From: an uncultured Phycisphaerales bacterium
GTDB taxonomy: Bacteria; Planctomycetota; Phycisphaerae; Tepidisphaerales; Tepidisphaeraceae
Length of the DNA: 64,000 bases
Assembly: GCA_963758525.1 (NCBI GenBank)
Contig: CAVWVQ010000001.1
Coordinates: 1 to 64,000 of the forward strand
Direction: 5' to 3'
Shown here: one piece after another, positions 40,307-60,394 of the stretch
Layout of the letters: each line of letters begins with the position of its first letter
Numbering within the stretch: the stretch's first letter is position 1
The notes under the pieces: model-generated
Databases searched by the model: none
The model's input: only the letters and a program-made list of their open reading frames with translations
What the model was told of the DNA's origin: nothing
Position numbers and translations under genes: made by a program

Positions 40307-40416
40307 GCGGTTAGCCGCGACGCGCAGCGGAGCGCGTATTGGAACGATAAAAGCGCGGTTAGTACGCCCGGTCCATGTCGCAAATACGCGCTCCGCTGCG
40401 CGTCGCGGCTAACCGC
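40307..40416. repeat. Perfect 34-bp inverted repeat (REP-like doublet)
   Basis: GCGGTTAGCCGCGACGCGCAGCGGAGCGCGTATT (40307-40340) and its exact complement (40383-40416). Confidence 0.85.
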
Positions 40417-41203: not shown

Positions 41204-41252
41204 GCCCGCATGAATCGTACTTACGGTATCGCGCAATTGGAAAGGGCGCGTG

Positions 41253-41415
41253 GAAGGCACGAAGGCACGAAGGCACGAAGGCACGAAGGCACAAAGGCAC
41301 AAAGGCACAAAGGCACGAAGGGAAGGAAGGGGATTTTAGAAGAGGTTCAGGGGAACATCACAAAAATCCCCTTCCTTCCCTCCGTGCCTTCGTGCCTCCG
41401 TGCCTTCGTGCCTTT
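41253..41415. repeat. Octamer tandem repeat (8 x RAAGGCAC) with inverted partner
   Basis: gaaggcac x5 and aaaggcac x3; GGGAAGGAAGGGGATTTT/AAAATCCCCTTCCTTCCC; gtgcctt(c)cg repeats. Confidence 0.8.
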
Positions 41416-41479
41416 CTGTCCTCATTCTCTCGCCCCCTCAAGTTGCCCGGCATCGCGTCCTCGGGAATAATCAAACCAC

Positions 41480-45412: not shown

Positions 45413-45554
45413 CCCCTTGCCCGCAAACGCAACCCGCGTATGATGCGAGGCTTGGGAATGAGCGGAGTCACCGACGGGAAAAGCGACGGTATTTCAGGTG
45501 ATCACCGGATCGTTGACGACACATGCGGCCGAGTACCCAAGCGGACTAAGGGGA
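45413..45554 (+). repeat. attL: 142-bp direct repeat (tRNA-Cys promoter, leader and first 28 nt)
   Basis: Matches 60207-60348 with one mismatch (45424 C vs 60218 G). Confidence 0.95.
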
Positions 45555-45594
45555 ATCATCAAAAACACGGGGAAATAAGCAGACTTTTGCCGCC

Positions 45595-45614
45595 GGTGGA
45601 CCAAATGTGGACCA
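45595..45614 (+). promoter_or_regulatory. Putative integrase arm-type binding sites (left)
   Basis: GGTGGACCAAATGTGGACCA; near-identical copy at 60125-60144 inside the other end. Confidence 0.7.
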
Positions 45615-45798
45615 CGGCTTACGGAAAGTCATCGCGGCATGGCCGACACTGCCGGCGAACGTCCGCGCGCAGATCCTTCGACTCGCGGAGCGGCAAGGGT
45701 AGAATCGAAACGAACATCGGGACGGCCGACTAATTACCGGCCAAGCGAATCGACGGCGGAGCCGTGTCCACCAGCACGACCCGCCGAAGATTCGGCCC

Positions 45799-46569
45799 GT
45801 GAAAGACTGGTGGAAAATGGAAGAATCGCAGGCACTTCGTTTTATCCGTGGACAAGGCAGTCAACCGGCACGATTTGAACGGCCCGACCGGAAGCCATCA
45901 CCGGAGGTTGAAGAATGCCGGAAGCTGCTCAGGGGCCCGGACATTCCCGTAATTCCTGCGGAGCTTCGTCGCATCGCCGACGTGCTCGACCGCGTTCCCG
46001 GGATGAACGAATTTGATGCGATGCGTACGACCGCGTCTGGCTGCCTGCATGACGCGATTAGAGCGGGCGCGTTCTCTGGAAGCCGCTGGCTCGATTTCCG
46101 TATCAAGCTCGCTGTCGGGCCCGGCATCACCACCGCGTACTTTCTGATCCTTGACAACTCGGAAGCGTGGGGCGTCACGATCGACAAAACGAAGCGATCA
46201 CCCCGTGCCGAAATTGAACTGGGTTGCCCGCTGATTGCCGCTCTGCTGAGGGAGCAAGCTCCTCAAAATTCCCTCCCGGCGCCAGCCCCAAAGGCGACTA
46301 CAGACGACGCCGCCGAGGCGGTGCGAATCATCGCCGATCGTGCAGCCACCAAGCCCAGGCTGCTCTGGCTTAAGTTCTATCTCGACCAAAATCCGAATGC
46401 GACGCTGCGCGACATTGAAACCGCCGCGAAGCTCTTACATCACTCCCTTCCAAGGGCGAGCACCAACGGCATTCTCGCGAGGGAAACATGGATAGGTCAT
46501 CAACCGCGCAGGCGATCGCACCGAGACACGTCAATTGAGCCAATCCTGCACCGTATCCCGTCCCGATAG
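45799..46569 (+). CDS. Hypothetical protein, possible C-terminal HTH
   Basis: 256-aa ORF; NPNATLRDIETAAK; position upstream of alpA. Confidence 0.55.
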   Translation: MKDWWKMEESQALRFIRGQGSQPARFERPDRKPSPEVEECRKLLRGPDIPVIPAELRRIADVLDRVPGMNEFDAMRTTASGCLHDAIRAGAFSGSRWLDFRIKLAVGPGITTAYFLILDNSEAWGVTIDKTKRSPRAEIELGCPLIAALLREQAPQNSLPAPAPKATTDDAAEAVRIIADRAATKPRLLWLKFYLDQNPNATLRDIETAAKLLHHSLPRASTNGILARETWIGHQPRRRSHRDTSIEPILHRIPSR

Positions 46570-46697
46570 CTGTCCGAACTGTCCGGCCGCTGCATTTCTT
46601 CGGACAGCGCATTTTTCTTGCCACTAACTGACATCGCTTGAAAACAGGGTGATTCCGCGCGCCCGCTTGCACGCCGCTGTCCAGAAATCCGGACAAC
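46569..46697. promoter_or_regulatory. Putative operator repeats upstream of alpA
   Basis: GCTGTCCGAA (46569) / TTCGGACAGC (46599) inverted pair; further CTGTCCGG and GCTGTCCAG...CCGGACA copies. Confidence 0.45.
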
Positions 46698-46753
46698 CCC
46701 TAGGAATGAAACGGTGCACCCACGGGGACAGGGTGCGCCATTCAGGAGGCAAT

Positions 46754-46975
46754 ATGACACACGAAAACGACACGCCGTCTCTGCTGCTGCGAGCTTCGAC
46801 CGTCGCCCGCATGTTGGAAATCGGGGAACGCACGCTCTGGCGTTGGGTCAGCGAGGGCGATTTCCCTTCACCGGACTACCGGAAAAACGAGCGGATTGTC
46901 CGCTGGAAGCGGGACACCGTAATGAACTGGGTGCACACCAACACCACCACGACGGCTGCTGCCATCACCGCTTAA
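46754..46975 (+). CDS. AlpA / excisionase-family HTH regulator
   Basis: LLRASTVARMLEIGERTLWRWVSEGDFPSP...VRWKRDTVMNW; AGGAGG RBS. Confidence 0.88.
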   Translation: MTHENDTPSLLLRASTVARMLEIGERTLWRWVSEGDFPSPDYRKNERIVRWKRDTVMNWVHTNTTTTAAAITA

Positions 46976-47057
46976 ACCCACTTACCGCTGCGGTTGCCCG
47001 GCGCATAAAAACGCCGCGGCAGGGCTCGCAACCCGTACCGCGGCAGAAACTCGACTG

Positions 47058-48581
47058 ATGACCATCGTAGCAGAAGAAATCGAAGCCCCCAACGAAATCG
47101 AAGATTCGACGAGAATCGTCGAACAAGTTGATGTTGAGGCCATCCGCGAGACGCATGAGAACTGGCGGATCTACTGCCGGCCATCAGCGACAGACGCAGC
47201 GTTCATCGAATTGGTTACGAGCGTGATGGAAAGCGGCATCAACACGCCGCTGGAGCTGTCAGCCGATCGGTACATCATCAGCGGCCACCGGCGCATTTTT
47301 GCCGCCCGTGCTGCCAAACTCGCGACCGTTCCATGCCTCATCGACCACGACATCTACATCGGACCGATGGACGCCGCGGAGCGTATCGCGCTGCTGACGG
47401 AACGCAATCGCGGCGTCAGGGTCAAGTCAGACGCGGAGCAATACCTTGAAGCCGCTGCGAAGATCGATCCCGAGGCTGCGATCCGGGACGCACAGCAGCG
47501 CAAGGCACAACATTTCAACAAGGCAAAAGGTTCTGTCGAACTGGTGGAGACCCAGGGCAAGAGTCGTCGCACGGATCCATCAAAGGCGCGTAGCGAGCTA
47601 TTGAATGCGGTTCTGGAAGTTCTGGAGGAACTGCGCTGCAATGGTCATCTGCCGATCGGCTCCAGGCATATTCACTACAGATTGCTCCACAAGAAAGTGA
47701 GGACAAGCAGCTACGCCAACGGATTTATATACGGCACGCGCAAGGGTTCCGATGGGTTACTCAGCAAACTTCTGACCGACGCGCGCAGCAAAGGCATTGT
47801 CGATCCAGACGACATCGGCGACGACTCCCGCCCTACGCAGAAGATGGAACATGATGGCAATATTGCTCGATACGTCGGCAGGGAACTGGACGCGCTCTTC
47901 GGCAATTTTTTCTCCGACATCCATGCAGATCAACCGCATCACGTTGAACTGCTGATCGAGAAAAACACGGTCTACCCGCTGATCGCAAAGCACGTCGGAA
48001 ATAAATTCCGCGTGCCGCTCACGTCAATGCACGGCTACGGCAGCTTCCCCTCATCCCGCGACATTGCCGCCAGGTTCAAGGCGAGCGGCAAGGAAAAGTG
48101 CGTCGTGATTTATGTCTCCGACCTCGACCCTGAAGGCGTGAACATGCCAGCGGCGGTCAAGAAATACCTCCTCGAAGACTTCGGAGTGACCACCACCATT
48201 GTGCGGGCCGGCGTGACGATGGAACAGGTCAAGAGGTTCAAACTGCCGCCGGATGCCGACGTGAAGTTGTCGAGTACCCGCGCAAAAGGCTTTATTGCGA
48301 AGTACGGGCACCAATGCTGGGAACTCGACTCGATGCCCGCCGACATCCTCATCAGCGAAACCGCCGGCGCTGTGTCGAAGTTCTTAGACATCGACGCGTT
48401 CAACAGGGCATTCGATCGCGAACGAGAAGCTGATATCGAGCTGGCTAGGATGAAGGCAGCCGCGTCCGCGTTCGTTCGTGACCAGTTTCAGGAACAACTC
48501 GGCCAGGGGCGCAATGAACAAGCACCTCCAATATGCCGGCGGGTTCTTTGTAACACCGCTGAGCGGCGGCTTGCCATTTGA
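47058..48581 (+). CDS. ParB-like N-terminal domain fused to a TopoVI-A/Spo11-like WHD-TOPRIM domain
   Basis: SGINTPL...IISGHRR (ParB); SRHIHYRLL (catalytic-Tyr helix); LLIEK and SDLDPEG (TOPRIM E and DxD); WELDSM; true stop may be 48517. Confidence 0.8.
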   Translation: MTIVAEEIEAPNEIEDSTRIVEQVDVEAIRETHENWRIYCRPSATDAAFIELVTSVMESGINTPLELSADRYIISGHRRIFAARAAKLATVPCLIDHDIYIGPMDAAERIALLTERNRGVRVKSDAEQYLEAAAKIDPEAAIRDAQQRKAQHFNKAKGSVELVETQGKSRRTDPSKARSELLNAVLEVLEELRCNGHLPIGSRHIHYRLLHKKVRTSSYANGFIYGTRKGSDGLLSKLLTDARSKGIVDPDDIGDDSRPTQKMEHDGNIARYVGRELDALFGNFFSDIHADQPHHVELLIEKNTVYPLIAKHVGNKFRVPLTSMHGYGSFPSSRDIAARFKASGKEKCVVIYVSDLDPEGVNMPAAVKKYLLEDFGVTTTIVRAGVTMEQVKRFKLPPDADVKLSSTRAKGFIAKYGHQCWELDSMPADILISETAGAVSKFLDIDAFNRAFDREREADIELARMKAAASAFVRDQFQEQLGQGRNEQAPPICRRVLCNTAERRLAI

Positions 48582-49089
48582 TGAGGGGTTGCACTTCGCC
48601 CGCATCGAACTGCAGCGCGTTTCGGCATCGCTGGAACTGATCGGGAGTTGCTGGCAGGAACCGGTTGAAGCCGTGCGGATCTGCGCCGAAGAGGGCATCA
48701 ATTCATCTGCCTTTGACGACGACAGCCGGATTCTGTTTTTGGTTCTGGAGCTTGCCGCCAAATATCCAGACGCAGACCGACGCAGACTTGCGCGGCGGTG
48801 TCTCAGAGCAAATCACCATTGGGACGATGCGGCGCCGCCGATTGAATTCGGCCGGCTCGGCTGGTCTGACAAAACGCTCGCGGTCCTGGCCGAGAGCTGG
48901 TTTCACTCGCCGCTGTTGATCCGTCTCAACGCTCGAAACTTACTCCGGATTCTCGTTTCACGGCGCGATGCGGCTCACCACCTCCGTGAGGCCCGCCGCC
49001 TTCTCGCGGATCCCGCACATTCTGAAACCCACAAACGCCCCGTGCACGTCATCAACCGCCCGGCACAGAATCGGAGGCGATCCGCATGA
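48514..49089 (+). CDS. Hypothetical protein, weakly DnaB-N-terminal-like
   Basis: LIGSCWQEP...GINSSAFDDDSRILF pattern; ATGA-coupled to the helicase. Confidence 0.55.
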   Translation: MNKHLQYAGGFFVTPLSGGLPFDEGLHFARIELQRVSASLELIGSCWQEPVEAVRICAEEGINSSAFDDDSRILFLVLELAAKYPDADRRRLARRCLRANHHWDDAAPPIEFGRLGWSDKTLAVLAESWFHSPLLIRLNARNLLRILVSRRDAAHHLREARRLLADPAHSETHKRPVHVINRPAQNRRRSA

Positions 49090-50876
49090 TTGCACTCGAA
49101 TACGACAACGAGATTCTCAACGGCGATTACCTCGCGACCGTGCGAGCTGTAGACACCGAGCGGGAGACAACCATCCACGAGCGGCGGATAAGCCTTCTGG
49201 ACGTGACACAGCGCCAGAACTTCGCGGACGCCGTGGCGAAAAGCATCGGCGATCGCGGCGCGGCGGAAGCAATCCAATTCAAGCTCCAGGAAAAAGCCAA
49301 CGAATGGAAGCCGGAAGGACACGGCACGCTGAAACTCACGACCCACGAGGAAGAGCCGGAAGCGCAGACAACCAGTGAGGGTTACAACCTCGTGCCCGGC
49401 GACTACACCGACGACGCCGGCAACAGCATCGAACGCGGCACCGACGACTTCACAGACGAAGTAATCGGCAATCTGCCCACCGGCACGATTTACTCGCGCG
49501 GCGGTGTTGCTGGTCAAGTTGAGGGCGAGCCAGGGGCGCGGTTCTTCTCTGATCTCGCACCGGACGGCATGCGCATCATCGTCGACTCCTGCATGAAGCT
49601 CGGGAAGTGGCGCACCCGTGGAGCCGGGAAGAACACCTATCAAGAAATCGGCTATGTGTCCTGCACGCGCGACCATGCCGGGCTCGTGTTATCTCGGGCA
49701 CCCGCCGATCGGCGCGTTCCGGTTCTCAAGTTCCTCACGTCGTACCCAATCTTTCTTCCCGGCTTTCGACTCTCAGAGCCGGGTTTTCACGATGGCGTTT
49801 TCTATGATGAGCCAGAAGCAATCCGGCAGATTAAAAGCGAGACCGATGCGGAAATTATCCGCGACACACTCTATGACCTCGTCATCGATTTCCCGTTCAA
49901 GGATGAAGCCAGCCGGCACAACTATTTCGGGCTGCTGATCACGCCGCTGATCCGTCCGGCGATCGCCGGCAACGTCCCCGGGCATCTCATCGGCGCGCCG
50001 CTGGAACGAACCGGCAAGACACTTCTCGCGGAGATTGTCGGCGCCATCGTTAACGGGATGCGGACGCCCGCCATGCAAATCTGTGAATCGAATGAGGAAA
50101 TGGACAAACGGCTCCTCGCGATTTTGCTTCGCGGGGAAACCCTGCTCCACCTGGATAATATCCGCGACACAATCGACCTCCCGTGTCTCGCCTCACTCTT
50201 GACCGCTAGCGTTTACAAAAGCCGTTTGCTCGGCGCGTCCAAGATGCTGGCGATTGAGAACAACGTGACGCTGATCGCCACGGGCAACAACCCCCGGGCA
50301 ACTGGTGAACTGGCAAAGCGGTTTGTTCCCATCACGCTCCAACCCACTACCGACGCGCCAGAACTGCGGAAGGATTTTCGACACCCCGATCTATGGGGTT
50401 ACGTCACGGAGCATCGCCGTCAAATCCTCGGCTGCCTGTTGGGCGCGGTGCGGATCTGGACCGACGCCGGCTCACCCCGCGGCGAACAACCGATGGGCGG
50501 GTTCGATGAGTGGGCAGCCGTCATCGGCGGCATCATGAAGGTGCTGGGTTTCGATGACTGGATGGGGAATGCCGGCGAATGGCGCGACTCGGCAGACTGG
50601 CGCCGATCCGACCTGCGGGCACTGGTGAAGTGCTGGCACGAACGGCACGGCAGCGGGCCCGTCACGGTTCGAGAAGCCCTGGCGATCGCGGAGGAGTTGG
50701 AACTATTCGGCGACGTGCTCATCGGCAAGGAAGGCAAGGCGCTGCTCACCAGCTTCGGAATGAAGGTGCTGGGGCGCAACACCGACACGCCGGTCGAAGG
50801 CTTCATCATCCGCAAGAACAGCCTCAGCCGTCCGGCAATCTACTCACTTCAGCCGCTGGAAGGGGTGACAGCGTGA
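49086..50876 (+). CDS. Phage/PICI replication P-loop helicase (SF3-like)
   Basis: Walker A GAPLERTGKT, Walker B LLHLDN, motif C IATGNN, ELAKRF; C-terminal winged-helix-like region. Confidence 0.82.
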   Translation: MIALEYDNEILNGDYLATVRAVDTERETTIHERRISLLDVTQRQNFADAVAKSIGDRGAAEAIQFKLQEKANEWKPEGHGTLKLTTHEEEPEAQTTSEGYNLVPGDYTDDAGNSIERGTDDFTDEVIGNLPTGTIYSRGGVAGQVEGEPGARFFSDLAPDGMRIIVDSCMKLGKWRTRGAGKNTYQEIGYVSCTRDHAGLVLSRAPADRRVPVLKFLTSYPIFLPGFRLSEPGFHDGVFYDEPEAIRQIKSETDAEIIRDTLYDLVIDFPFKDEASRHNYFGLLITPLIRPAIAGNVPGHLIGAPLERTGKTLLAEIVGAIVNGMRTPAMQICESNEEMDKRLLAILLRGETLLHLDNIRDTIDLPCLASLLTASVYKSRLLGASKMLAIENNVTLIATGNNPRATGELAKRFVPITLQPTTDAPELRKDFRHPDLWGYVTEHRRQILGCLLGAVRIWTDAGSPRGEQPMGGFDEWAAVIGGIMKVLGFDDWMGNAGEWRDSADWRRSDLRALVKCWHERHGSGPVTVREALAIAEELELFGDVLIGKEGKALLTSFGMKVLGRNTDTPVEGFIIRKNSLSRPAIYSLQPLEGVTA

Positions 50877-50880
50877 GAAA

Positions 50881-51070
50881 TTCAACACCTTTCAACACCT
50901 TTCAACACCTTTTCAAAAAAGGTGTTGAGCGCAACCAACGCGGTGATAAGAGTATACGCAACAACCAACACCTTCAACACCTTTCCAGTACCCCCCCACA
51001 TGCGCAGGCGCGCGCCTGAACCACGAACGGGTGGGCTGGAAAAGGTGTTAAAGGTGTCTGAAGGTGTTGA
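50881..51070. repeat. Iteron cluster / putative replication origin
   Basis: 5 direct CAACACCTT copies and 4 inverted AAGGTGTY copies immediately after the helicase stop. Confidence 0.75.
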
Positions 51071-51286
51071 TTTGGTCCTGCACATCACCATTCGGCCGCA
51101 CGAAATCCCGTGGGACGTTCGGCTTGCCGGCGAGATCAAGCGGATGGGGCGTCATCCGCTTATCCAGTTCGACGTGACGCATTACGCGATGGCTGGCACC
51201 GCCAACGCGTCCGCGAGCACCGCGCCCACGTCCGCATCGCACGAACCAGCAACGCGGGAAACAGGCTGCAAACGCAAAGGGAACCA

Positions 51287-51517
51287 ATGAGCGACGAACT
51301 GGCAACCATCACCATCTTTGAACCGCGCCCGGCGCTCCCGGACCTGCTGGCGGCACTGCGCAGCCGCGGATTGAAACTCAGAGCCGGCAGAGACATCGAC
51401 CAGCCGCACTACCGATGGCTGGACGTGATGCCAGCCGAGCGAGTCGGGAACTTGTGGCCGGCGATCGAAGCGAACTTCAGCGCGTTGCACACACTGGCAG
51501 AGCAGGTGGCACCATGA
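51287..51517 (+). CDS. Small hypothetical protein
   Basis: MSDELATITIFEPR...; AAGGGA RBS; ATGA overlaps. Confidence 0.6.
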   Translation: MSDELATITIFEPRPALPDLLAALRSRGLKLRAGRDIDQPHYRWLDVMPAERVGNLWPAIEANFSALHTLAEQVAP

Positions 51518-51696
51518 GCACGGATGAACAGCAGACAGACAGCAGCAGTGCCGACGCCACGATTACGCGTTCGATGGGCGACTATGAGGTCGAAACTGCC
51601 AAGGTGGCACCCCCCCATGAGGTTCTTTTTTGGGGCCGGTGGCATCTCACGGGTTCGCCGCAGAGCCAGCGAATGACCACCTACGCCGCACTGTAG
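51514..51696 (+). CDS. Small hypothetical protein
   Basis: ATGA overlap with the previous gene. Confidence 0.4.
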   Translation: MSTDEQQTDSSSADATITRSMGDYEVETAKVAPPHEVLFWGRWHLTGSPQSQRMTTYAAL

Positions 51697-51765
51697 CAGG
51701 AATGAAAACACGACTTGACGGTACGACACAATGCCGAATGTTAAGATAGTTAAGGTGGGTATACT

Positions 51766-51807
51766 GGGTCCTCTCCGGGCCGCACGCCCTTTACGCGGGT
51801 TTGCGAC
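51766..51807 (+). other. Lambda-like cosQ-cosN packaging site
   Basis: GGGTCCT-17 nt-TTTACG CGGGTTTGCGAC, about 55 bp upstream of terS. Confidence 0.65.
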
Positions 51808-51863
51808 TGCCTTATTCCCAGAGATTGTTGCCTTGAACGTGATGAGTTAACGCTTTCCACGCA

Positions 51864-52391
51864 ATGAAAAAGCACCGCAAACAACCTCTGCCGCCGATCA
51901 CCAGCGCCCGGAAACTTGCCACGCTGATGCAGCGGAGTCACGTCGCCGTCAGCAAATGGCTGAAGCGTGCCGACTGGCCGTTCGGTACGCCGCCGTGGCT
52001 CGCGTCACAGCTTCCATCGATCGCAAAATGGTCTGATGAAACGCTGCGCCCATCAGTCGACGCCGGCAACGAAGACGCTGCCGCGGTTGATCTGCGCCGT
52101 CAGAAGCTACGGCAGGAAATCCGCCGTCTGAACGCCCAGGCTGACGCTTCTGAGTGCGCCCTTGCCAAAGAGCGTGGCTCCCTGATGGACGCGGGGGAAG
52201 TTGTCCGGGAGTGGCAGTCAATCACAGCGGCGCTGACGGCTGGCGTGGGCTCGCTGCCAGAGTCGGCTGCAATGCTGGCGCTGTCGCATGGGATGCCGCA
52301 CGAAGCGCGGGGAACGTTCAAGCAACAGGTACGGGAAGCGATCGACGCCATTCTGCAGCGGATGAACGCGCGGAGCGTGGTGGAACAATGA
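51864..52391 (+). CDS. Terminase small subunit, lambda Nu1-like
   Basis: N-terminal wHTH (SARKLATLMQRSHVAVSKWLK..WP), coiled coil, LAKERGSLMDAGEV...SLP pattern. Confidence 0.75.
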   Translation: MKKHRKQPLPPITSARKLATLMQRSHVAVSKWLKRADWPFGTPPWLASQLPSIAKWSDETLRPSVDAGNEDAAAVDLRRQKLRQEIRRLNAQADASECALAKERGSLMDAGEVVREWQSITAALTAGVGSLPESAAMLALSHGMPHEARGTFKQQVREAIDAILQRMNARSVVEQ

Positions 52392-52477
52392 GGCTGTCTT
52401 AGGGCTGCCGGGTGTTCCGGCCGCCCCAGAGTTTTTGAAAACAAACAGCCGGCGAACTGTCGGCGGAAAGATGAGCG

Positions 52478-53014
52478 ATGAACGCATCAGAAACATGGCA
52501 GGATCACACGGAGGCGATCGCCGCCAATCGGTGCGCCGAAGCAGGTGCCAGATACCAAGGGTATCGCCAGCTCCTGCGCGAGATTGCATCCGATGGCAAC
52601 CTGTCCGACGGTCGCAAGGATCAGCTTGAAACCCTCGGTCAATCGCTCGCGATACCCGCCGATGAGATTCGCCGGGATCTGGCGACGATGACGGCCGCGG
52701 TGGCGCGGGAGAAACTCGCTGGCGGTTCCGACGCCGCAAGGGTCGCGGCGCAGGCGGCGCGTGAGGCGGTTGACGCTCACGTTACCGAAACCGATCGGCT
52801 GGTGTCCGCGCGGGAAGAGGAAACTTGGCATCTTCGGCATGATCGCAAGGTGACTGAGAACGAGCTTCGCGCCGCGCACGAGACGGCAGAGCGAGGCGTA
52901 TCGACGACAGCCGAAGCGCAGGCGGAGCTTGACCAACTCCGAATCGACCACGCGCAACTTTTGAATCATCCCACGACGGCCCCGGTGTCCCCGGCGGCTC
53001 ATATCGTGGCGTGA
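52478..53014 (+). CDS. Coiled-coil hypothetical protein, paralog A
   Basis: YRQLLREIASDGNLSDGRKDQLETLGQSLAIPADEIRRDLAT. Confidence 0.7.
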   Translation: MNASETWQDHTEAIAANRCAEAGARYQGYRQLLREIASDGNLSDGRKDQLETLGQSLAIPADEIRRDLATMTAAVAREKLAGGSDAARVAAQAAREAVDAHVTETDRLVSAREEETWHLRHDRKVTENELRAAHETAERGVSTTAEAQAELDQLRIDHAQLLNHPTTAPVSPAAHIVA

Positions 53015-53050
53015 CTATTAGCCGGCAAGTTCCGGCGGAAAGAAGAAGCA

Positions 53051-53728
53051 ATGGATTTTCTGAAACGACTGAAGGCGCGGCGAGCCGAAAAGCACGCCAC
53101 CGTGATTGAGAAATATGCGGCACTGATCCGACGAGCAGCGAATGGAGGCGAGCTCTCTGAAGCGGATACGGCGCGGCTTGATGCTCTTGCTGCGGAACTG
53201 AAGTTCGAACCGGAGCGCATTGAAGCGGACGTTGAGACGATCAAGCGCGTTGTAGCGCTCGAGGAAATCGCCCCGACGCTGGACGCAAAGAAGGTGGAAC
53301 ACAAGGCGTTGACCGTCGAACTTGGCGCGGCTCACGATGAACTGAAGACGATTCTCGCGAGGTTCAATGAGCGCATCACGTCGATCGAAGGACGCAAGGG
53401 ACAGGCGGGCGTTGCAATGACGGAGGCGAGCCAGGCGGTCGATGAACTTGCCGATCTGCGTTCCCGTCACTGGCGTTTGCTCGGCTTCCCCGAACCACCC
53501 AAACGCGAAGTGCCGGAAACGATCATCGATCCGATCAGCGATGGGCATCGGATCTACCAGGATTCCTACGCGGAGGTCTACGGCGGCGAGAGTAAGACGC
53601 CGAAGCCGCTCCCTGAAGTGATGGCGCCGTTGCCGGGTCCGCCAGCACGGGTTCACGTCACAGCATCGGCGGAAGAGACGGGCGTTAAAGGACGGATCCG
53701 CGGGACGATCAGTGTGCAGCCAGCTTAA
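53051..53728 (+). CDS. Coiled-coil hypothetical protein, paralog B
   Basis: YAALIRRAANGGELSEADTARLDALAAELKFEPERIEADVET. Confidence 0.75.
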   Translation: MDFLKRLKARRAEKHATVIEKYAALIRRAANGGELSEADTARLDALAAELKFEPERIEADVETIKRVVALEEIAPTLDAKKVEHKALTVELGAAHDELKTILARFNERITSIEGRKGQAGVAMTEASQAVDELADLRSRHWRLLGFPEPPKREVPETIIDPISDGHRIYQDSYAEVYGGESKTPKPLPEVMAPLPGPPARVHVTASAEETGVKGRIRGTISVQPA

Positions 53729-53729
53729 A

Positions 53730-53925
53730 CCCGCCGGCCAGGGTGTGCGGGGCCGCTCACGGCACCCCGCGTTACGAAGACCGTGAGCGGGTGAATCGTT
53801 TCGAGCCCGGCCAGCGGTGGATTTTCGTTCGTTTGTCCACCGCGAGAGACTTAACCCCGAAGGTCCGGCGGGATGCGAAAATCGACGACGGACCAACCCC
53901 GGCAGCGGTGAAAGCTGATGTCGGG
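53730..53925 (+). ncRNA. Candidate structured RNA with pseudoknot
   Basis: Enclosing stem 53730-37/53865-72; hairpins 53746-71, 53789-808, 53814-43, 53898-925; loop 53753-62 is complementary to 53781-90. Confidence 0.45.
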
Positions 53926-53953
53926 ATTTGAAAGAACAACTTAACCGCGGCGA

Positions 53954-55072
53954 ATGCCGCAAGGAATTTCAAATGACCAAGTCTTCAACACTTCAGCGGC
54001 GGCGCAGCATCCGGGTCGTCATCTCGGGCGACCTTGGGCAATTGCACCGCGCGACTTCGAGCCAATCCTTCAGAGTGTCTCAACCCTGAATTTCAACAAT
54101 GTGCCGGCACCGTCGGATGATGACGCCGCGCCTTATCGAGTGGTCAACGGACTGGCGATTGTCAGCGTCGGCGGCCCGTTGGTTTCGAGCGCCGATTGGA
54201 TCGATGAATACCTCGGCTTTGTGGGGCTCGACGACATTGAAAACGCCGTGAATCAGGCAGCAGGCGATCCGCGGATCAATGGCATCATGCTCGCGGTTGA
54301 CAGCCCGGGCGGCACGGTTGCAGGAACAAGCTCCGCTGCGGCCGCCATTGCCAGAGCAGCAAGGATCAAGCCTGTACACGGTTACTCGGCAAACTGCGCG
54401 TGCTCGGGCGCTTACTGGCTCGTCTCGCAATGCAACCGCTTCACTTCCGGCGATACTGCCGCCGTCGGCAACGTCGGAGTGTACGCGGTTCTCTGCGACA
54501 GCACCGGCATGCAGCAACAGCTTGGATTGCGGCTTAGTCTCGTCTCGACTGCGCCGTACAAAGGATTGGGCGCTGACGGCGCGGTGAGTGATGCGTTGAT
54601 CGCGGACGTGCAGCGCGAGATCGCCGATATCAATCAAGTCTTTCTTGCGGCGGTTTCCCGCGGGCGGTCGCTCGATTCTACGAAGGTTCTGTCGGTCGCC
54701 GACGGACGCGCCCATATCGGGCAGGCTGCGGTTTCGCTCGGACTGTCCGATGGCATCTGCAGCTTTGAGGACGCGTGCCTCGCGCTGCTGAAGGAAACAG
54801 GCGATGCCGGTTCACCGCTAGGGCCCGCGTCGGCGGCGCCGGTGAAGTTCGCTCCCGACGATGACGCCAGCGAACCCATGCCCGATATCGATCCGCTGTC
54901 TCGTCGATCGACACAATCACCCGAGGCTGCCGCGCTCGCGGAATGGCAGAGCGATCCGAGTCTCCGTGAGACGTGGAAGACGCAAGAGCGGTTCACGAAA
55001 TGGCGCACCAGCACTGCCGGGATTGCGCATGCCCAACGATCGCAGAGCCGCATCGCGGGGACGTTCCGATGA
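53954..55072 (+). CDS. S49 family peptidase (lambda gpC-like prohead protease) with scaffold-like C-tail
   Basis: PWAI, VDSPGG, ACSGAYWL, VGNVGV, APYKG, VSRGR; tail AALAEWQSDPSLRETW. Confidence 0.88.
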   Translation: MPQGISNDQVFNTSAAAQHPGRHLGRPWAIAPRDFEPILQSVSTLNFNNVPAPSDDDAAPYRVVNGLAIVSVGGPLVSSADWIDEYLGFVGLDDIENAVNQAAGDPRINGIMLAVDSPGGTVAGTSSAAAAIARAARIKPVHGYSANCACSGAYWLVSQCNRFTSGDTAAVGNVGVYAVLCDSTGMQQQLGLRLSLVSTAPYKGLGADGAVSDALIADVQREIADINQVFLAAVSRGRSLDSTKVLSVADGRAHIGQAAVSLGLSDGICSFEDACLALLKETGDAGSPLGPASAAPVKFAPDDDASEPMPDIDPLSRRSTQSPEAAALAEWQSDPSLRETWKTQERFTKWRTSTAGIAHAQRSQSRIAGTFR

Positions 55073-55407
55073 ACGCCACCTATCAAACGATGATCGACCT
55101 TGTTCTCTGCTATCGCAGCTCCGCGCAGATTGGCGCGATGGCACGGCTGAACTGCGGACAGATCTGCGCGATGTTCCGGCGCTCGCTGGCGGCTGGCGTC
55201 GGCGATGCACTCTCAGGACGTTTCTACCGCAAACACGCGGCGCTCGGACGGAGCTGCCGTGCCGACATCGCCGATCTGTTCAAGCGTGAAGCTGATCGGT
55301 GGGCGCTTGCGCTGAGTGGATATGCGAAGCGCCGCAACTTGTTCGGCGCGGTCGAAGATGACCTCCGCGTTGAATCTGAACGTCTAGGCGGAACCACCCG
55401 CATTTAA
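55069..55407 (+). CDS. Hypothetical protein
   Basis: ATGA overlap with the S49 gene; 112 aa. Confidence 0.55.
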   Translation: MNATYQTMIDLVLCYRSSAQIGAMARLNCGQICAMFRRSLAAGVGDALSGRFYRKHAALGRSCRADIADLFKREADRWALALSGYAKRRNLFGAVEDDLRVESERLGGTTRI

Positions 55408-55422
55408 TCGAGGTAACCAGCA

Positions 55423-56916
55423 ATGGCCAAAAGTGAACGACAAGTCGATATTGCAATCACGGCCCGCGACGAAGCGTCAAGCGTTTTCAAGAGCGTTGCG
55501 GCGCAGGCGCGTGAGTTCAATATGGAGGCGAAGCGCAGTGGCGAGGGCGCAGTCGAGCGGCTGCTAAAAGGCGGCGGTGCCCTTGGTCTCGCGACATTCG
55601 CGCTTGAGGGCGCGGGACATGCTGCCAAGGCGTTCAGCGAATCGCTTGCGGAAGTTGCCAACGGTGAGCGGTCTGTCCAGGAAGGCTTCGGACACATGCT
55701 GGAGGGGGTCTCCGGCGCGGTGCCCGTGCTGGGGACGTGGGTCACGGCGTTCCGTGAAATCGAAAATGCAGGATTCGACGCCGCAGCTTCCATCGCCGCC
55801 GCCTTCGGCGCAGACAAGGCAACGCAAGAGGCCATTGAAAGTTCCGACACCCTCAAGGCGCATTATGAGGCGCTCTCCAAGGCGATCTACGAAGGCGAAA
55901 AGCTGGCGATGGCGGGCAAGGCAAAAGCCACGATCGCCGGATTGACGGGCATAGAGAGAGAGCGGGCCGAGGCCAACAAGGCATACCAAGAGGAGCTCGA
56001 CCATATCGAGCAGCTGCGCAAAGAAAAAGAGAAGGGGTTGGACGCCGACGGGAAACGCGCCGCCGACAAAGGATTCAATCAGGCGCGTATCGAAGCTGAG
56101 AACGCGCTCAATCAGAAGCTCGCCGAACTATCCCGCGAGGCGGCAGACCAAAAGGAAGAAAACCAACTCAAGCACCTCGAGCGCGTCAAGTCCCAAGAAG
56201 ACTTGGCCGACGAAGTTCGGCTTCGTGAACGCGGCCGCGATCTTGAGGCTGATCTGGTCGCATTGACGGCGGCGCATGAAAAGGAGCTCGCGGAAATTGA
56301 CCGGCTGCATCAGAAACAAAAACTCAGTGACCAACAGGCAAAAGAGGAGCGTGCCGCTGCTGATGAAGCGTTCGAGGCGCGATCCGGCGAGGCACGGGAG
56401 AAGGATGCCGCGGCCAAGCTCGAACGGAACGATTCGATCAATCAGACGCTCAACGCCGCCAAGCTCGCTGCGCTGAAGGAACAGGCCGCGATGGGCGATC
56501 AGGGGGCAGCCGCGGAGGCCAGGAAGTGGGAAATCTCCCTGAAGTACACCGCCGAAAAAGAGAAGCTCATCCGACTCCTGCGCGATGAGAAGGGGTTGAC
56601 TGATGCCCAGCACGCGGCGGCAATTCAGGCGCTGGGGGATCTTGAGAAAGCCAGAAACAAGGAACTGGAAAGCAGCAAAGTTGAACCGCAGGAGAACCGC
56701 AAGGCGGCCCTCGAGGAATCATCACAACTGGCTGGCGTGTCGGCATCACAGGACATCGCAAAAGAACATCTTCAAACCGCGAAGGATTTACTTGACGAGG
56801 CCAAGAAGAATAACGACACGCTGACCCAGGCGGCCGCCGACATCGCAACGATGGTGGGATATCTGGACCCGAGCAACGCCACGTCGGCGAACAGCGTTTT
56901 TGGAGACAGCCAATGA
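55423..56916 (+). CDS. Tail tape-measure-like protein
   Basis: N-terminal VDIAITARDEASSVF, Gly/Ala hydrophobic segment, long Ala/Glu/Lys coiled coil; GAGG RBS. Confidence 0.65.
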   Translation: MAKSERQVDIAITARDEASSVFKSVAAQAREFNMEAKRSGEGAVERLLKGGGALGLATFALEGAGHAAKAFSESLAEVANGERSVQEGFGHMLEGVSGAVPVLGTWVTAFREIENAGFDAAASIAAAFGADKATQEAIESSDTLKAHYEALSKAIYEGEKLAMAGKAKATIAGLTGIERERAEANKAYQEELDHIEQLRKEKEKGLDADGKRAADKGFNQARIEAENALNQKLAELSREAADQKEENQLKHLERVKSQEDLADEVRLRERGRDLEADLVALTAAHEKELAEIDRLHQKQKLSDQQAKEERAAADEAFEARSGEAREKDAAAKLERNDSINQTLNAAKLAALKEQAAMGDQGAAAEARKWEISLKYTAEKEKLIRLLRDEKGLTDAQHAAAIQALGDLEKARNKELESSKVEPQENRKAALEESSQLAGVSASQDIAKEHLQTAKDLLDEAKKNNDTLTQAAADIATMVGYLDPSNATSANSVFGDSQ

Positions 56917-57155
56917 CCGATCCACGCGTTATCGACATGATCGAGGCGACCCGGCGGAGCTTCATCGGGCTTGAGGAAAGCTACGCCAAGCACTCTGAAG
57001 TCATGGACCGGCATGTCGAGTACATCGGCGATCCGGATGTTTCGACGCGCGAGGACTGGAAAGCGCTCCTGCCAGAACTAGCGAATCTGCGTCGCCGGTT
57101 GGCGGTGTTTCACTCGGCGCTGGGACGGCTGGAAAAGCATATCAAGAGGGAGTGA
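56913..57155 (+). CDS. Small hypothetical protein
   Basis: ATGA overlap; 80 aa. Confidence 0.55.
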   Translation: MTDPRVIDMIEATRRSFIGLEESYAKHSEVMDRHVEYIGDPDVSTREDWKALLPELANLRRRLAVFHSALGRLEKHIKRE

Positions 57156-57189
57156 GGCGCGCCGGTGCGGAACTATAGGAATTTAGTTC

Positions 57190-57230
57190 TTGACTATGAT
57201 TCGGTACGCCTCTATATTTATTCCATAGTC
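57190..57230 (+). promoter_or_regulatory. Sigma70-like promoter overlapped by an inverted repeat
   Basis: TTGACT-17 nt-TATATT; GACTATG...CATAGTC. Confidence 0.6.
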
Positions 57231-57248
57231 ATCAACCAAGGAGCAGCC

Positions 57249-57440
57249 ATGACAACCGGGACGCGCCCGACCGCAACCCTGAAGAGAATGATTACCGCGG
57301 CAGCCGCCGATCGCGATGCCATGCTCCGCGAGGCCGGCGACTATGCCGGAAAGCAACGCTCGGATCGGTATTGTGAAGCTGATCGGCTCGACGGTGTTCT
57401 CAACGCACTGAAGGCGGAGCTGATCGAAGCGGAGGGGTGA
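57249..57440 (+). CDS. Small hypothetical protein (63 aa)
   Basis: AAGGAG RBS, own promoter. Confidence 0.6.
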   Translation: MTTGTRPTATLKRMITAAAADRDAMLREAGDYAGKQRSDRYCEADRLDGVLNALKAELIEAEG

Positions 57441-57527
57441 ATCGGGGGCGCCCGTGTCACAATTGACGAACCTCTGCGAAAAGTGGGCTCTCAGACTCCG
57501 CCTGCATAAACGCCACGGTAAACCTTT

Positions 57528-57719
57528 TCACAGCTTCCCCTTCGCCAGCTTTCCCTTCGGGCGCCCAGGCTTGCGGACACGCACGTCGGCAAGGCTTTTC
57601 TCTTCGATCATATAGACATTGCCGAACTTGGAGGCGCGAAGCCGGCCGGCGGTGATAAGGGCAATCACGCGGCGGCGGGTGACTTTGAGCTTCGCGGCGG
57701 CGGCGGTCGTGGTCAACAT
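57528..57719 (-). CDS. Excisionase-family (HTH_17) DNA-binding protein
   Basis: MLTTTAAAAKLKVTRRRVIALITAGRLRASKFGNVYMI...KPGRPK. Confidence 0.82.
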   Translation of the reverse strand: MLTTTAAAAKLKVTRRRVIALITAGRLRASKFGNVYMIEEKSLADVRVRKPGRPKGKLAKGKL

Positions 57720-57877
57720 TGCCGCCAGAGTCTACAGACTGACAAGAAAATATCTATGCACCCTTGCGAACAGTTCCCCGCGTTGTATAGTTTCTCGTAG
57801 CTTGCCGAGTGGCGAGCATTCAAAGTGCCCCCGCGACGTGTCACCGTCCGGGGGCCGGTCAAAGCTTTTAAGGAGCA

Positions 57878-58339
57878 ATGACGATGGAAAATGTACTGCA
57901 TACCGCGCCGCGTTTGAATCTTGCGGGTGTTCCCAAACATGCCCGCACGATCATCCGCAAGGCACCGGCGACCTGGCACCGCTGGCTCGCGTTCCTGAAT
58001 GCCGCCGACGATCCCGACTTCGAGCTGGTAGCCGAAGAAGCGGCGCCCATGTTTGAACTGGTGGCAAAGCTGACACGGCTGGGCGTCCCGTTCGATGAAA
58101 GCTTCCTGCAGCGCGTCGCGGAACTGCGGGAGGAAATGAAGTGGACGGATGCCGACAGTGACGGCGATGTGAGTGTGGACGATGGGAAGGAAGAACCACC
58201 CGATGAGCGGTTCGGACCCTGCGACAACGACGATCCGGCTTGCCGGGAGGACCTGCAACCAACTATCCGCCGGGACTTTGACGGCACCACAAGCCAGCAC
58301 AAGCCTTTGCTCAGCGAATGGGCGGGGGTGCCGCGATGA
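57878..58339 (+). CDS. Hypothetical protein
   Basis: AAGGAG RBS; ATGA overlap with the bet-like gene. Confidence 0.6.
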   Translation: MTMENVLHTAPRLNLAGVPKHARTIIRKAPATWHRWLAFLNAADDPDFELVAEEAAPMFELVAKLTRLGVPFDESFLQRVAELREEMKWTDADSDGDVSVDDGKEEPPDERFGPCDNDDPACREDLQPTIRRDFDGTTSQHKPLLSEWAGVPR

Positions 58340-58896
58340 AAACCACCAATGATGAGAAATCGTTGCTCCTGCTCAAATCGCTCTACGATCTGACGGACGA
58401 TCAATTCCAGATGTTCCTTCTCGACCATCAAGTTTACGATCTGGACCCCGCCCACCGCCTCATCGTTCCGCTGAGAAACCGCGACGGGTCGAAGACGAAT
58501 TTCTTGACCCTCGCCGCGAGAAGGCTCAGCGCCTTCCGGACAGGGGAATACGTCGGTCGCGAAGGCCCCTTCTGGTGCGATGCTGAGGGCAAGTGGTCCG
58601 ACGTGTGGCTGAGCGACGAGCCGCCCGCCGTCGCGAAAGTTGGCATCCGTCGCAAGGGGTTTCCCGAGCCGGCGTGGGGACAAGTCACGTGGAACGAGTA
58701 TGCCCGCTGGAAGAAGGGGAAAGGCGGCGCCCGTATCTATACGCGGTTTTGGCGATTGATGCCGTCGCACATGCTCGCGGTTGCCGCGGAACGGAAGGCG
58801 TACAGCATCGCCTTCCCCGATCTGATGGTTGGACGGGCGCTCAAGGAAGAATCAGTAATTGCACCCGGCGAGCTTCGATTGGCGGCGGAAGTATAA
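58336..58896 (+). CDS. Redbeta/Bet-like (RecT-family) single-strand annealing protein
   Basis: TDDQFQMFL...LDP, RTGEYVG..GPFWC..GKWSDVWL..PP..AKVGI.RKG, EY, WRLMPSHML...AER.A...AFP. Confidence 0.8.
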   Translation: MKTTNDEKSLLLLKSLYDLTDDQFQMFLLDHQVYDLDPAHRLIVPLRNRDGSKTNFLTLAARRLSAFRTGEYVGREGPFWCDAEGKWSDVWLSDEPPAVAKVGIRRKGFPEPAWGQVTWNEYARWKKGKGGARIYTRFWRLMPSHMLAVAAERKAYSIAFPDLMVGRALKEESVIAPGELRLAAEV

Positions 58897-59004
58897 CTTC
58901 TGATCGGTTGTGGCAAGATTTCCACAACCGATTCTTTGATCGAAAACTGACACGGGCCGTCCGCTGGCTAACGCTGGCGGAGGCGATTGAAAGGAACGTG
59001 AACC

Positions 59005-60295
59005 ATGGCTGACGTATTCAAGCGAAAGAGCAGTACGGGCGAGGCGCTGAGCATTTACTACGGCAAGTTGAAGGTCGTGCCCGGGACGTGGAAGCGCGTC
59101 AGCCTGTACACCGACAAGGAATCGAGCCGCCGGCGACTGCGCGAATTGCAGACCGAAGCAGACCAGCGCCGCGCAGGTATTCTCACCCCCGATACCGACC
59201 GGCTGGCGTTGCCGATTACCACGCTGGCGGAGCAGTACGGCGAATCGTTGCGCACCCAGGGGCGCGACGGGGATCACCTGCGCATCGTGAAATGGATGAA
59301 CGAGCAGCTTATCGAGCTTGGCGGCTGGAAGTTCTACCGGGACATCACCCGCGATTCGATGGGGAAGATTCTCGCCACGCTGGAGGGGCGGGGCGCCACC
59401 GCATCGTACCGCAACAAGTATCTGGCGCGGTGAAAGCGCTGGTGAACTGGCTTCTGCCTGATGGCGCAGCGTCTCCGCTGGCCAAGGTGAAAAGGATCCG
59501 GGAGAAGGGCGCAAAAAGACACGCGATCGGCGAGCCGCGACGGCGGATGAGCTGGCAGCGCTGATCGCGCTGGACATGCCCGACGATCGACGCCTCGCGT
59601 ATGCCCTGGCGGCATTCAACGGGCTTCGCAGGAATGAAGCCGCGCGGCTCAAGTGGAAGAGCCTGGCACTCGCCGCGGTCATTCCGTTCCTGGCGGTTCG
59701 CAGGAAGCAGGGACAGACCGACGAGCCGGATTACATTCCGGTGCATCCCTACGTTGCGAAACTCCTGGCCGGGCGGTTGGCCATGCCAGCGGCGACGGTA
59801 TTGCCCAACGTCCCCGACGTGGCCACGCTGGAAAAGGAATGGACCAAGGCGGGCGTGGCGTTCGCTGATGAGAAGGGGCGCAGGCTCGACTATCACGCCC
59901 TTCGTCACACCTTCCAGACCACGTTGGACCGCACGGGCTGCAGCCGGGCAACGAAGAAGAAACTGATGAGGCACGCGAATGAGGACGTGACAGACGGATA
60001 TGCGCATGCCGAGCTTTCGGAAATGCTGGAGGCGATCCTGCGCGTGCCGTCGCCGATGGAATGGCAGACGTTGACCGCAGCGGCAACCGGCACCGATCCG
60101 GCGGATATCACAATCTTGCGGGTTGGTGGACCAAATATGGACCAAGCCGCGACCCTTGAGCGGCAACGAGCGGCAACAACCCAGACCGCCGATGGGTTGA
60201 TTTTGACCCCTTGCCCGGAAACGCAACCCGCGTATGATGCGAGGCTTGGGAATGAGCGGAGTCACCGACGGGAAAAGCGACGGTATTTCAGGTGA
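59005..60295 (+). CDS. int: Tyrosine recombinase / integrase (frameshifts near 59428 and 59520)
   Basis: GLRRNEA (R), YHALRH (HxxR), LMRHA, DGYAH (Y); adjacent to attR. Confidence 0.88.
60125..60144 (+). promoter_or_regulatory. Putative integrase arm-type binding sites (right)
   Basis: GGTGGACCAAATATGGACCA. Confidence 0.7.
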
Positions 60296-60348
60296 TCACC
60301 GGATCGTTGACGACACATGCGGCCGAGTACCCAAGCGGACTAAGGGGA
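60207..60348 (+). repeat. attR: 142-bp direct repeat including the tRNA promoter
   Basis: Copy of 45413-45554; TTGCCC-16 nt-TATGAT at 60211-60238. Confidence 0.95.
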
Positions 60349-60394
60349 CGGATTGCAAATCCGTTATTCGTCGGTTCGAATCCGACCTCGGCCT
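60321..60394 (+). tRNA. tRNA-Cys(GCA)
   Basis: Acceptor GGCCGAG/CTCGGCC; anticodon arm ACGGA-TTGCAAA-TCCGT; T arm GTCGG-TTCGAAT-CCGAC; U73; CCA not encoded. Confidence 0.95.

Follow-up and report, generated by a model that had tools for sequence, protein, structure and literature searches.

What is a 14.8-kb integrated element that encodes phage-type packaging, head-maturation and tail proteins and has no recognizable capsid gene? The element in question lies in the window G000:C1:1-64000, the whole 64,000-nucleotide stretch of DNA analysed, from the genome (G000), likely that of a planctomycete to judge by named homologues, of 6.47 Mb in six contigs with 90.9% completeness and 6% contamination. 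Its gene content, assigned by Pfam and PHROGs searches, and its relatives in other genomes suggest that it is most probably a phage satellite that resembles the chromosomal islands that are inducible by phages (PICIs) and exploits a lambda-like helper.

The element is delimited by a direct repeat of 142 nt, the copies of which (attL, 45413-45554; attR, 60207-60348; both + strand) define a circle of 14,794 bp. The initial annotation, made from the letters alone, gave this size and described the repeats as exact; the size stands, while the copies are identical at 141 of 142 positions, with one mismatch. The repeat begins with a promoter-like site (45417-45444 in attL), continues through a leader, and ends with the first 28 nt of tRNA-Cys. 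The promoter scan returns five sites against 3.6 expected, which is weak on its own. The attR copy overlaps the 3′ end of the integrase gene (int) and provides the promoter-like site and the 5′ end of the intact tRNA-Cys(GCA) at 60321-60394 (+), the integration target. Because the repeat ends in the 5′ part of the tRNA, the element appears to sit upstream of the tRNA gene and would resupply its 5′ end together with a promoter. In a same-genus genome (G002, contig C2), the same tRNA-Cys site is occupied by an element of ~16 kb whose integrase is 64% identical; it has a 19-nt core, and similar promoter boxes are present at each of its junctions. Integrases of the same clade are found directly upstream of tRNA-Cys or tRNA-Arg in most of the loci examined (L236-L251), with very different cargo.

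The gene order proposed initially is confirmed: integrase, alpA, replication gene (rep), origin, cos, small terminase (TerS), two coiled-coil (CC) paralogues, S49 protease, and tape measure protein (TMP). All accepted open reading frames (ORFs) lie on the + strand except one HTH_17 gene (57528-57719), as the description of almost all genes on one strand implied, whereas the tight ATGA coupling described with it does not hold, with 4-nt ATGA overlaps at just 5 of 17 gene junctions and a coding density of 87%. No Pfam or PHROG match among the element proteins points to a capsid, portal, large terminase (TerL), tail tube, or credible lysis family, in agreement with the initial annotation; a lone weak holin-family match (E 0.008) falls within the integrase. 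When 178 proteins from lambda and from relatives’ prophages were searched against the element in six frames, the matches were S49, TMP, and int only, with no remnants of capsid, portal, TerL, or tube. The hypothetical ORFs likewise have no capsid or portal match in Pfam or PHROGs. Among them, orfA (45799-46569, +; 256 aa at most) has a helical C-terminal part, no capsid-family match, and a single-sequence fold model that is uninformative (pLDDT 40.9); it is likely a regulator.

The packaging functions follow the replication gene. Direct and inverted AACACCTT iterons at 50879-51073, including the inverted repeat I8, mark the likely origin, and the same AACACCTT iterons come after a 68% identical rep in an element of G002 contig C10. 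Downstream, at 51766-51807 (+), lies a lambda-like cos candidate whose words and spacing at 51766-51795 (GGGTCCT, 18 nt, TTACG) are identical to those of the joined ends of lambda (J02459); the corresponding elements are named cosQ and cosN. Of 17 element loci with a lambda-type terS, 14 have a looser cos-like motif no more than 400 nt upstream of that gene. The motif occurs in 2.3% of 5,000 random windows, the pattern having been tuned on these very sites after inspection, and in none of eight loci with a TerS of another family (phrog_83 type). The terS gene of the element (51864-52391, +) belongs to the lambda Nu1-type family (phrog_57, E 1.7e-9), which the TerS of a lambda-like prophage in a relative, G004, also matches.

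The S49 head protease (53954-55072, +; PF01343, phrog_53) has at most 372 aa, compared with a median of 458 aa in 55 full-length relatives. It is ~90-140 aa shorter than these relatives and keeps a C-terminal motif at residues 313-352. Its catalytic Ser and Lys align with those of lambda gpC. A scaffold profile was built from 17 C-termini of S49 relatives, two of them from the prophages of G004 and another relative, G086, and run on 1,616 locus proteins. It matches the G004 and G086 phage proteins, two proteins of 226 aa in locus L115 (E 9e-13) and 148 aa in L016 (E 6e-5), respectively, and, modestly, the C-terminal motif of the element protein (E 6-7e-4, the next match being at 0.12). In L115 and L016 the motif stands in stand-alone proteins, and all three elements that have it carry a lambda-type TerS and the same TMP family. 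By analogy with CpmB, as described in PMC10945586, we infer that the element S49 protein may be a shortened internal scaffold.

The 497-aa product of the gene at 55423-56916 (+) is a likely TMP. It has no Pfam or PHROG match, and the initial description of it as tape-measure-like is upheld through relatives’ prophages rather than directly from the libraries. Two close homologues of 512-610 aa are 52% and 46% identical, and a profile of the homologues finds, at E 1.4e-28, a 505-aa gene of the G004 prophage that occupies the place of the tape measure. The gene order there is terS, terL, gpW-like, portal, S49, decoration, and capsid, followed by genes in the tube, chaperone, TMP, and hub positions, where the names tube, chaperone, and hub reflect position alone. 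The G004 genome is unpublished, and the identities of 40% (TMP) and 37% (S49) cited below, together with this gene order, rest on it; the G086 prophage is independent evidence for this order and has a TMP that matches in the same position. Searches of viral and genome contigs with the TMP gave no match, and a scan of metagenomes turned up a single phage tail locus. In the TMP tree the element protein groups with P0002 and P0003 (99/100), and 17 of 30 inner branches are open. Neighbouring TMPs fall in several PHROG families, which fits repeated capture of this gene.

CC1 (52478-53014, +; 178 aa) and CC2 (53051-53728, +; 225 aa) are the family marker. Their paralogy, claimed from the outset, is confirmed by a profile built without either (E 5e-15 for CC1 and 8e-35 for CC2); direct BLAST (E 3.2) fails to show it. 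In the structural model of CC2 (pLDDT 83), a helix of 86 residues is accompanied by two short ones; the model has no significant match by Foldseek in PDB or BFVD. Homology to the P4 proteins Psu and Sid was considered and rejected. The ESM Atlas lists Psu as the nearest named cluster to CC2 (0.85, with low recognition, a lead only), and the link is unsupported by Pfam, PDB sequences, Foldseek (PDB and BFVD), or profile comparison, the last of which, made with single sequences, gives a probability of 0.5% for Psu and 0.2% for Sid.

In the host family, 40 of 141 genomes have a match to the CC profile, 14 of the 40 having contributed training rows to it; elsewhere in the phylum, 7 of 400 genomes do. 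The profile has no match among 50,697 phage records and one marginal match (E 0.007) among 266 proteins of relatives’ full prophage loci. Of 66 CC loci fetched, 64 were counted (L091 and L129 were dropped because their gene calls contain no CC, and the hit in G129 was not fetched); they cover ~10 kb on each side, and 13 of the 64 are under 10 kb. They comprise int in 37, rep in 36, TMP in 27, TerS in 23, Mu-like genes in 11, hub-like genes in 8, protease/scaffold in 8, and TerL in one; the labels for TMP, scaffold, and att were assigned manually, two of those for scaffold being weak. The initial annotation held that homologous loci that are normally full prophages would make this element a deletion remnant; none of the 64 loci has a capsid or portal match, as judged by prophage-derived queries on all called proteins and by PHROGs on only 278 selected ones. 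Nine of these 278 served as controls from G004, and the scan did recognize capsid, portal, and TerL among them. Direct repeats flank sixteen loci, of which 15 span 6.2-17.4 kb and one 33.5 kb, and 8 of the 16 have a TMP. TerS and TMP occur together in 11 of the 64, and hub-like genes accompany TMP in five (L016, L061, L065, L075, and L110). The complete trio of TerS, protease, and TMP is seen solely in the G000 element. The family is defined by the CC gene, with TerS, TMP, and protease/scaffold as variable modules. The new satellite family proposed initially thus survives as a CC family, while its packaging, head, and tail-length proteins do not hold as a defining set.

Several CC loci have unusual architectures. 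Backbones with a Mu-like transposase and MuB, mostly with a TMP, occur at L062, L099-L102, L108, L123, and L124 (genomes G019, G151, G093, G146, G103, G148, and G069); no capsid was matched among the proteins scanned there, and these loci are candidate transposable satellites. In G002, contig C10 (~859400-892993; L110, L223), a 33.5-kb att-bounded CC element carries what looks like an entire tail module (neck, TMP, and hub-like genes) and no capsid, portal, or TerL match, and is possibly a tail-forming satellite. L059 (G093:C1, ~1836000) has its own TerL (phrog_2) and no capsid or portal match. CC often has as its neighbour a gene that encodes an HEXXH motif of the HEAGH type (L054, L055, L059, L060, L063, L065, L067, L086, L088-L090, L120, and L137); this gene has no PHROG match where scanned and is absent from the G000 element.

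TerS/cos, the S49-scaffold, and the TMP are all of lambda-like prophage type. As a satellite, the element would form a 14.8-kb circle on excision and replicate from the origin it carries, and a lambda-like helper would package it. Provided that it is a satellite, there are good grounds to expect its TerS to bind its own cos and recruit the helper TerL. The chance is a little better than even that its TMP would substitute for that of the helper in chimeric tails, by analogy with the Vibrio cholerae elements known as PLEs, and about even that the S49 protein would act as an alternative internal scaffold/protease making smaller heads, in the manner of CpmB of the SaPIs. The CC proteins, long helices that every family member has by definition, are only tentatively proposed to be central to the action against the helper, most probably as an external capsid scaffold comparable to Sid or TcaP. 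Hijacking at TerS/cos, prohead assembly, and tail length, as put forward initially, stays a prediction within a satellite interpretation that is itself supported over a deletion remnant. On a broader scale, it is conceivable, though doubtful, that the CC gene defines an undescribed satellite superfamily across Planctomycetota with a new helical capsid-remodelling protein as its constant core, in which TerS/cos, mini-scaffolds, TMP, hub, and whole tail modules are swapped among integrase islands and Mu-like transposable backbones, the Mu-like ones as transposable satellites and the G000 element hijacking packaging, head size, and tail at once.

No intact helper was found in G000. No TerL (three Pfam families) and no lambda-type portal were found in this 90.9% complete genome. 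A 40-kb prophage at tRNA-Gln (G000:C3:4693061-4733164; L001-L003) has capsid, TMP, and tail-fibre matches and an inverted tail segment, with no TerL or portal match among the 42 proteins scanned; its rep is 38-40% identical to that of the element. Since G000 has no intact helper, the helper is likely an external, lambda-like phage. A co-resident lambda-like prophage with a matching cos, which the initial annotation suggested looking for, was not found in G000. The region upstream of terS in the G004 and G086 prophages did not yield the cos motif of the element, so neither is a matched helper.

The tyrosine integrase gene (59005-60295, +; PF00589) is interrupted by two apparent 1-nt losses near 59430 and 59515, both at homopolymers and both absent from the initial annotation. 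One of the shifts is also present in G002, which would suit a programmed frameshift, but 13 of 16 matches in the integrase family are open over 423-521 aa, and the closest match (G014) reads through the spot of the shared shift; a programmed frameshift was rejected. Counts of homopolymer run length did not discriminate. Among 35 host orthologues, 2 are likewise split in G000, and the comparison with other genomes favours homopolymer errors of the assembly, which are the likely cause. Both rep and int are under purifying selection, with dN/dS of ~0.17 and ~0.12, respectively.

These observations bear on three other explanations and on the strength of the satellite interpretation itself. One possibility is a lambda-like prophage in decay, now immobile and stripped of the genes for portal, TerL, capsid, and tail. 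TerS, S49, and TMP do follow the lambda-like gene order, and their best homologues of known context lie in full prophages (40% over 145 aa for TMP and 37% for S49, both to G004); the integrase is frameshifted, the 40-kb tRNA-Gln prophage is a rearranged second example in the same genome, and the 33.5-kb CC element of the same genus retains a whole tail module. Against this, the 178-protein search found no remnants, and CC is essentially absent from full phages yet common to 64 loci without capsid or portal matches. The open integrase relatives, the read-through in the closest of them, and the split host genes point to the assembly as the source of the frameshifts. A satellite is preferred over a deletion remnant because the same arrangement without head genes is met again in many att-bounded elements that diverge from one another, and because TerS/cos, S49-scaffold, and TMP are of lambda-like prophage type; a remnant is unlikely. 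Slightly less probable still is a mobile anti-phage island, in which the short scaffold, TMP, and CC would poison the assembly of a lambda-like phage and the element would hitchhike in unmodified particles via TerS/cos. The modules are optional, half of the att-bounded members having no TMP, and the TMP is about as long as that of the G004 prophage (497 vs 505 aa), so that tail length need not change; satellite interference with tail assembly is also published (PMC11364771 and, for Rta, 10.1101/2025.01.29.635557). Such poisoning accords poorly with S49 catalytic residues that are intact, with a full-length TMP that has close homologues, and with hub-like genes beside TMP in five loci, as in the chimeric tails of PLEs.

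That the element is an artefact of assembly, or that phage-like genes have come together here by chance, is highly improbable. Indel errors in the assembly, its contamination, and the unusually long repeat would be in keeping with this, but a related element with similar junctions occupies the same tRNA-Cys site in a same-genus genome, and the layout recurs in many genomes. A satellite thus remains the most probable explanation, against which a number of points have to be set. The element is known from its sequence, and excision, replication, and particles are predictions; the integrase is interrupted twice; no tail chaperone was identified among its proteins, unlike in PLEs; neither TerL nor a lambda-type portal was found in G000; and the G004 and G086 prophages show no matching cos. 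The after-the-fact tuning of the cos pattern, the modest scaffold match, the low Psu and Sid probabilities, the open branches of the TMP tree, the limited span of the CC loci, and the restricted PHROGs scan count in the same direction, as do four CC loci with no clear mobile-element context (L057, L064, L087, and L105).

Comparison with known systems places the element between classes. According to 10.1101/2022.09.14.508007, the PICI model of SatelliteFinder has five components and forbids tail genes, and a serine protease is occasionally present in PICIs. Like a PICI, the element has an integrase and an att-bounded tRNA site, an alpA-type regulator, a primase-replicase, TerS, and a length of ~15 kb, and it has no TerL, portal, or lysis gene. 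Unlike a PICI, it carries a TMP homologue, a forbidden tail gene that the program might not flag for want of a PHROG match; it has no known capsid-morphogenesis family, the S49 mini-scaffold and CC being candidates; and it adds the CC marker and RecT-like and ParB-topoisomerase-like genes. By its gene content, the element is thus PICI-like with a PLE-type tail module and falls outside strict PICI membership on the tail gene. PLEs (10.1101/2025.01.29.635557) carry genes for TMP, chaperone, and hub, and they assemble tails that are chimeric. They share with the element a satellite-encoded TMP and with its relatives a hub-like gene, and their elongated capsid-remodelling scaffold TcaP (PMC10945586) is a possible analogue of CC. 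The PLE helper ICP1 is a large lytic phage with a contractile tail. Indirect evidence places the host of the element outside Vibrio, and no Pfam or PHROG match of the element points to PLE genes, in library scans that included no direct PLE comparison.

The EPIPs of Mycolicibacterium encode TerS, scaffold, and TMP (PMC12822802, accessible portion). At ~11 kb, they are helper-dependent, with smaller heads and altered tails, and resemble the element in these three genes. In that portion, EPIPs differ in having a serine integrase, head-tail adaptor, and stopper, whereas the element has a tyrosine integrase and no adaptor or stopper match; a major capsid gene is listed for EPIPs, on which the paper is inconsistent, and no S49, CC, or lambda-type cos is described. 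Capsid-forming PICIs (cf-PICIs) share a PICI-like left arm, TerS, and a head protease, whereas the element has no capsid, TerL, or head-tail connectors, and what it contributes is part of a tail rather than a head. P4 (X51522) likewise has an integrase, an alpA-type gene, a primase, and long helical late-region proteins; the element shows no detectable Psu or Sid homology and no delta, and its TerS, S49, and TMP are absent from the P4 record. A complete lambda-like prophage differs in possessing TerL, portal, capsid, and tail tube. The initial statement that the element fits neither the PICI, the cf-PICI, nor the P4 layout is partly supported: it is neither a strict PICI nor a cf-PICI or P4-like element, but its integrase, regulator, replicase, and TerS are those expected of a PICI.

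Among the remaining genes of the element, the AlpA/excisionase-type helix-turn-helix regulator (46754-46975, +) matches PF12728 (E 1e-6), PF05930 (E 0.008), and phrog_66. It is followed by a 507-aa protein with a ParB-N domain and a topoisomerase-like domain (47058-48581, +; PF02195 below cut-off, phrog_6247 E 2e-35) and by orfD (48514-49089, +; ~190 aa), which lies upstream of rep and has homologues in related elements. The ParB-like gene and orfD overlap by 68 nt (48514-48581); one more frameshift near the end of the ParB-like gene is suggested. The gene caller favoured minus-strand frames over both orfD and cc1, which were kept because of homologues and of the CC profile match, respectively. 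The 596-aa replication protein (49086-50876, +) is of a primase/helicase-type family (phrog_10537 E 9e-50, phrog_19930 E 9e-25) and diverges from its counterpart in G002 contig C10 with dN 0.23 and dS 1.37; a search of named genomes with rep found one planctomycete phage-like locus, without CC. Two small ORFs of 76 and 60 aa (51287-51696, +) precede cos. On the other side of S49, orf112 (55069-55407, +) occupies the position where a tail chaperone would lie and has no Pfam, PHROG, or ESM Atlas match. Beyond the TMP are two small ORFs of 80 aa and 64-91 aa (56913-57440, +), the minus-strand HTH_17 gene, which is excisionase-like (PF12728 E 3.5e-7, phrog_2907), orf153 (57878-58339, +), with homologues in related elements, and a 186-aa RecT/Bet-like single-strand annealing protein (58336-58896, +; phrog_2780 E 2e-18, PF03837 just below cut-off). 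Outside the element, the window contains an array of 8-nt tandem repeats that has an inverted partner (41245-41439) and a perfect 34-nt inverted repeat (40307-40416). Elsewhere in G000, contig C3 carries tRNA arrays of 15 genes (~3764011-3766477) and five genes (3600074-3600529).

Satellite-encoded TMPs are already published for PLEs and EPIPs and are not the novelty here; what is new is the CC-marked family, the mini-scaffolds, and the Mu-like transposable members. No paper on satellites of Planctomycetota or on a Mu-like capsid-less satellite was found in the open-access literature. If the satellite interpretation is true, this phylum would harbor a common satellite family, its marker being present in about a quarter of the genomes of one bacterial family, and satellite TMPs, proven in PLEs and proposed for EPIPs, would represent a repeated strategy. 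The shortened scaffold of lambda gpC/Nu3 type and CC provide two testable proteins for the control of capsid size. The CC profile, in turn, may serve as a marker for elements that current models, in which tail genes are forbidden, would discard.

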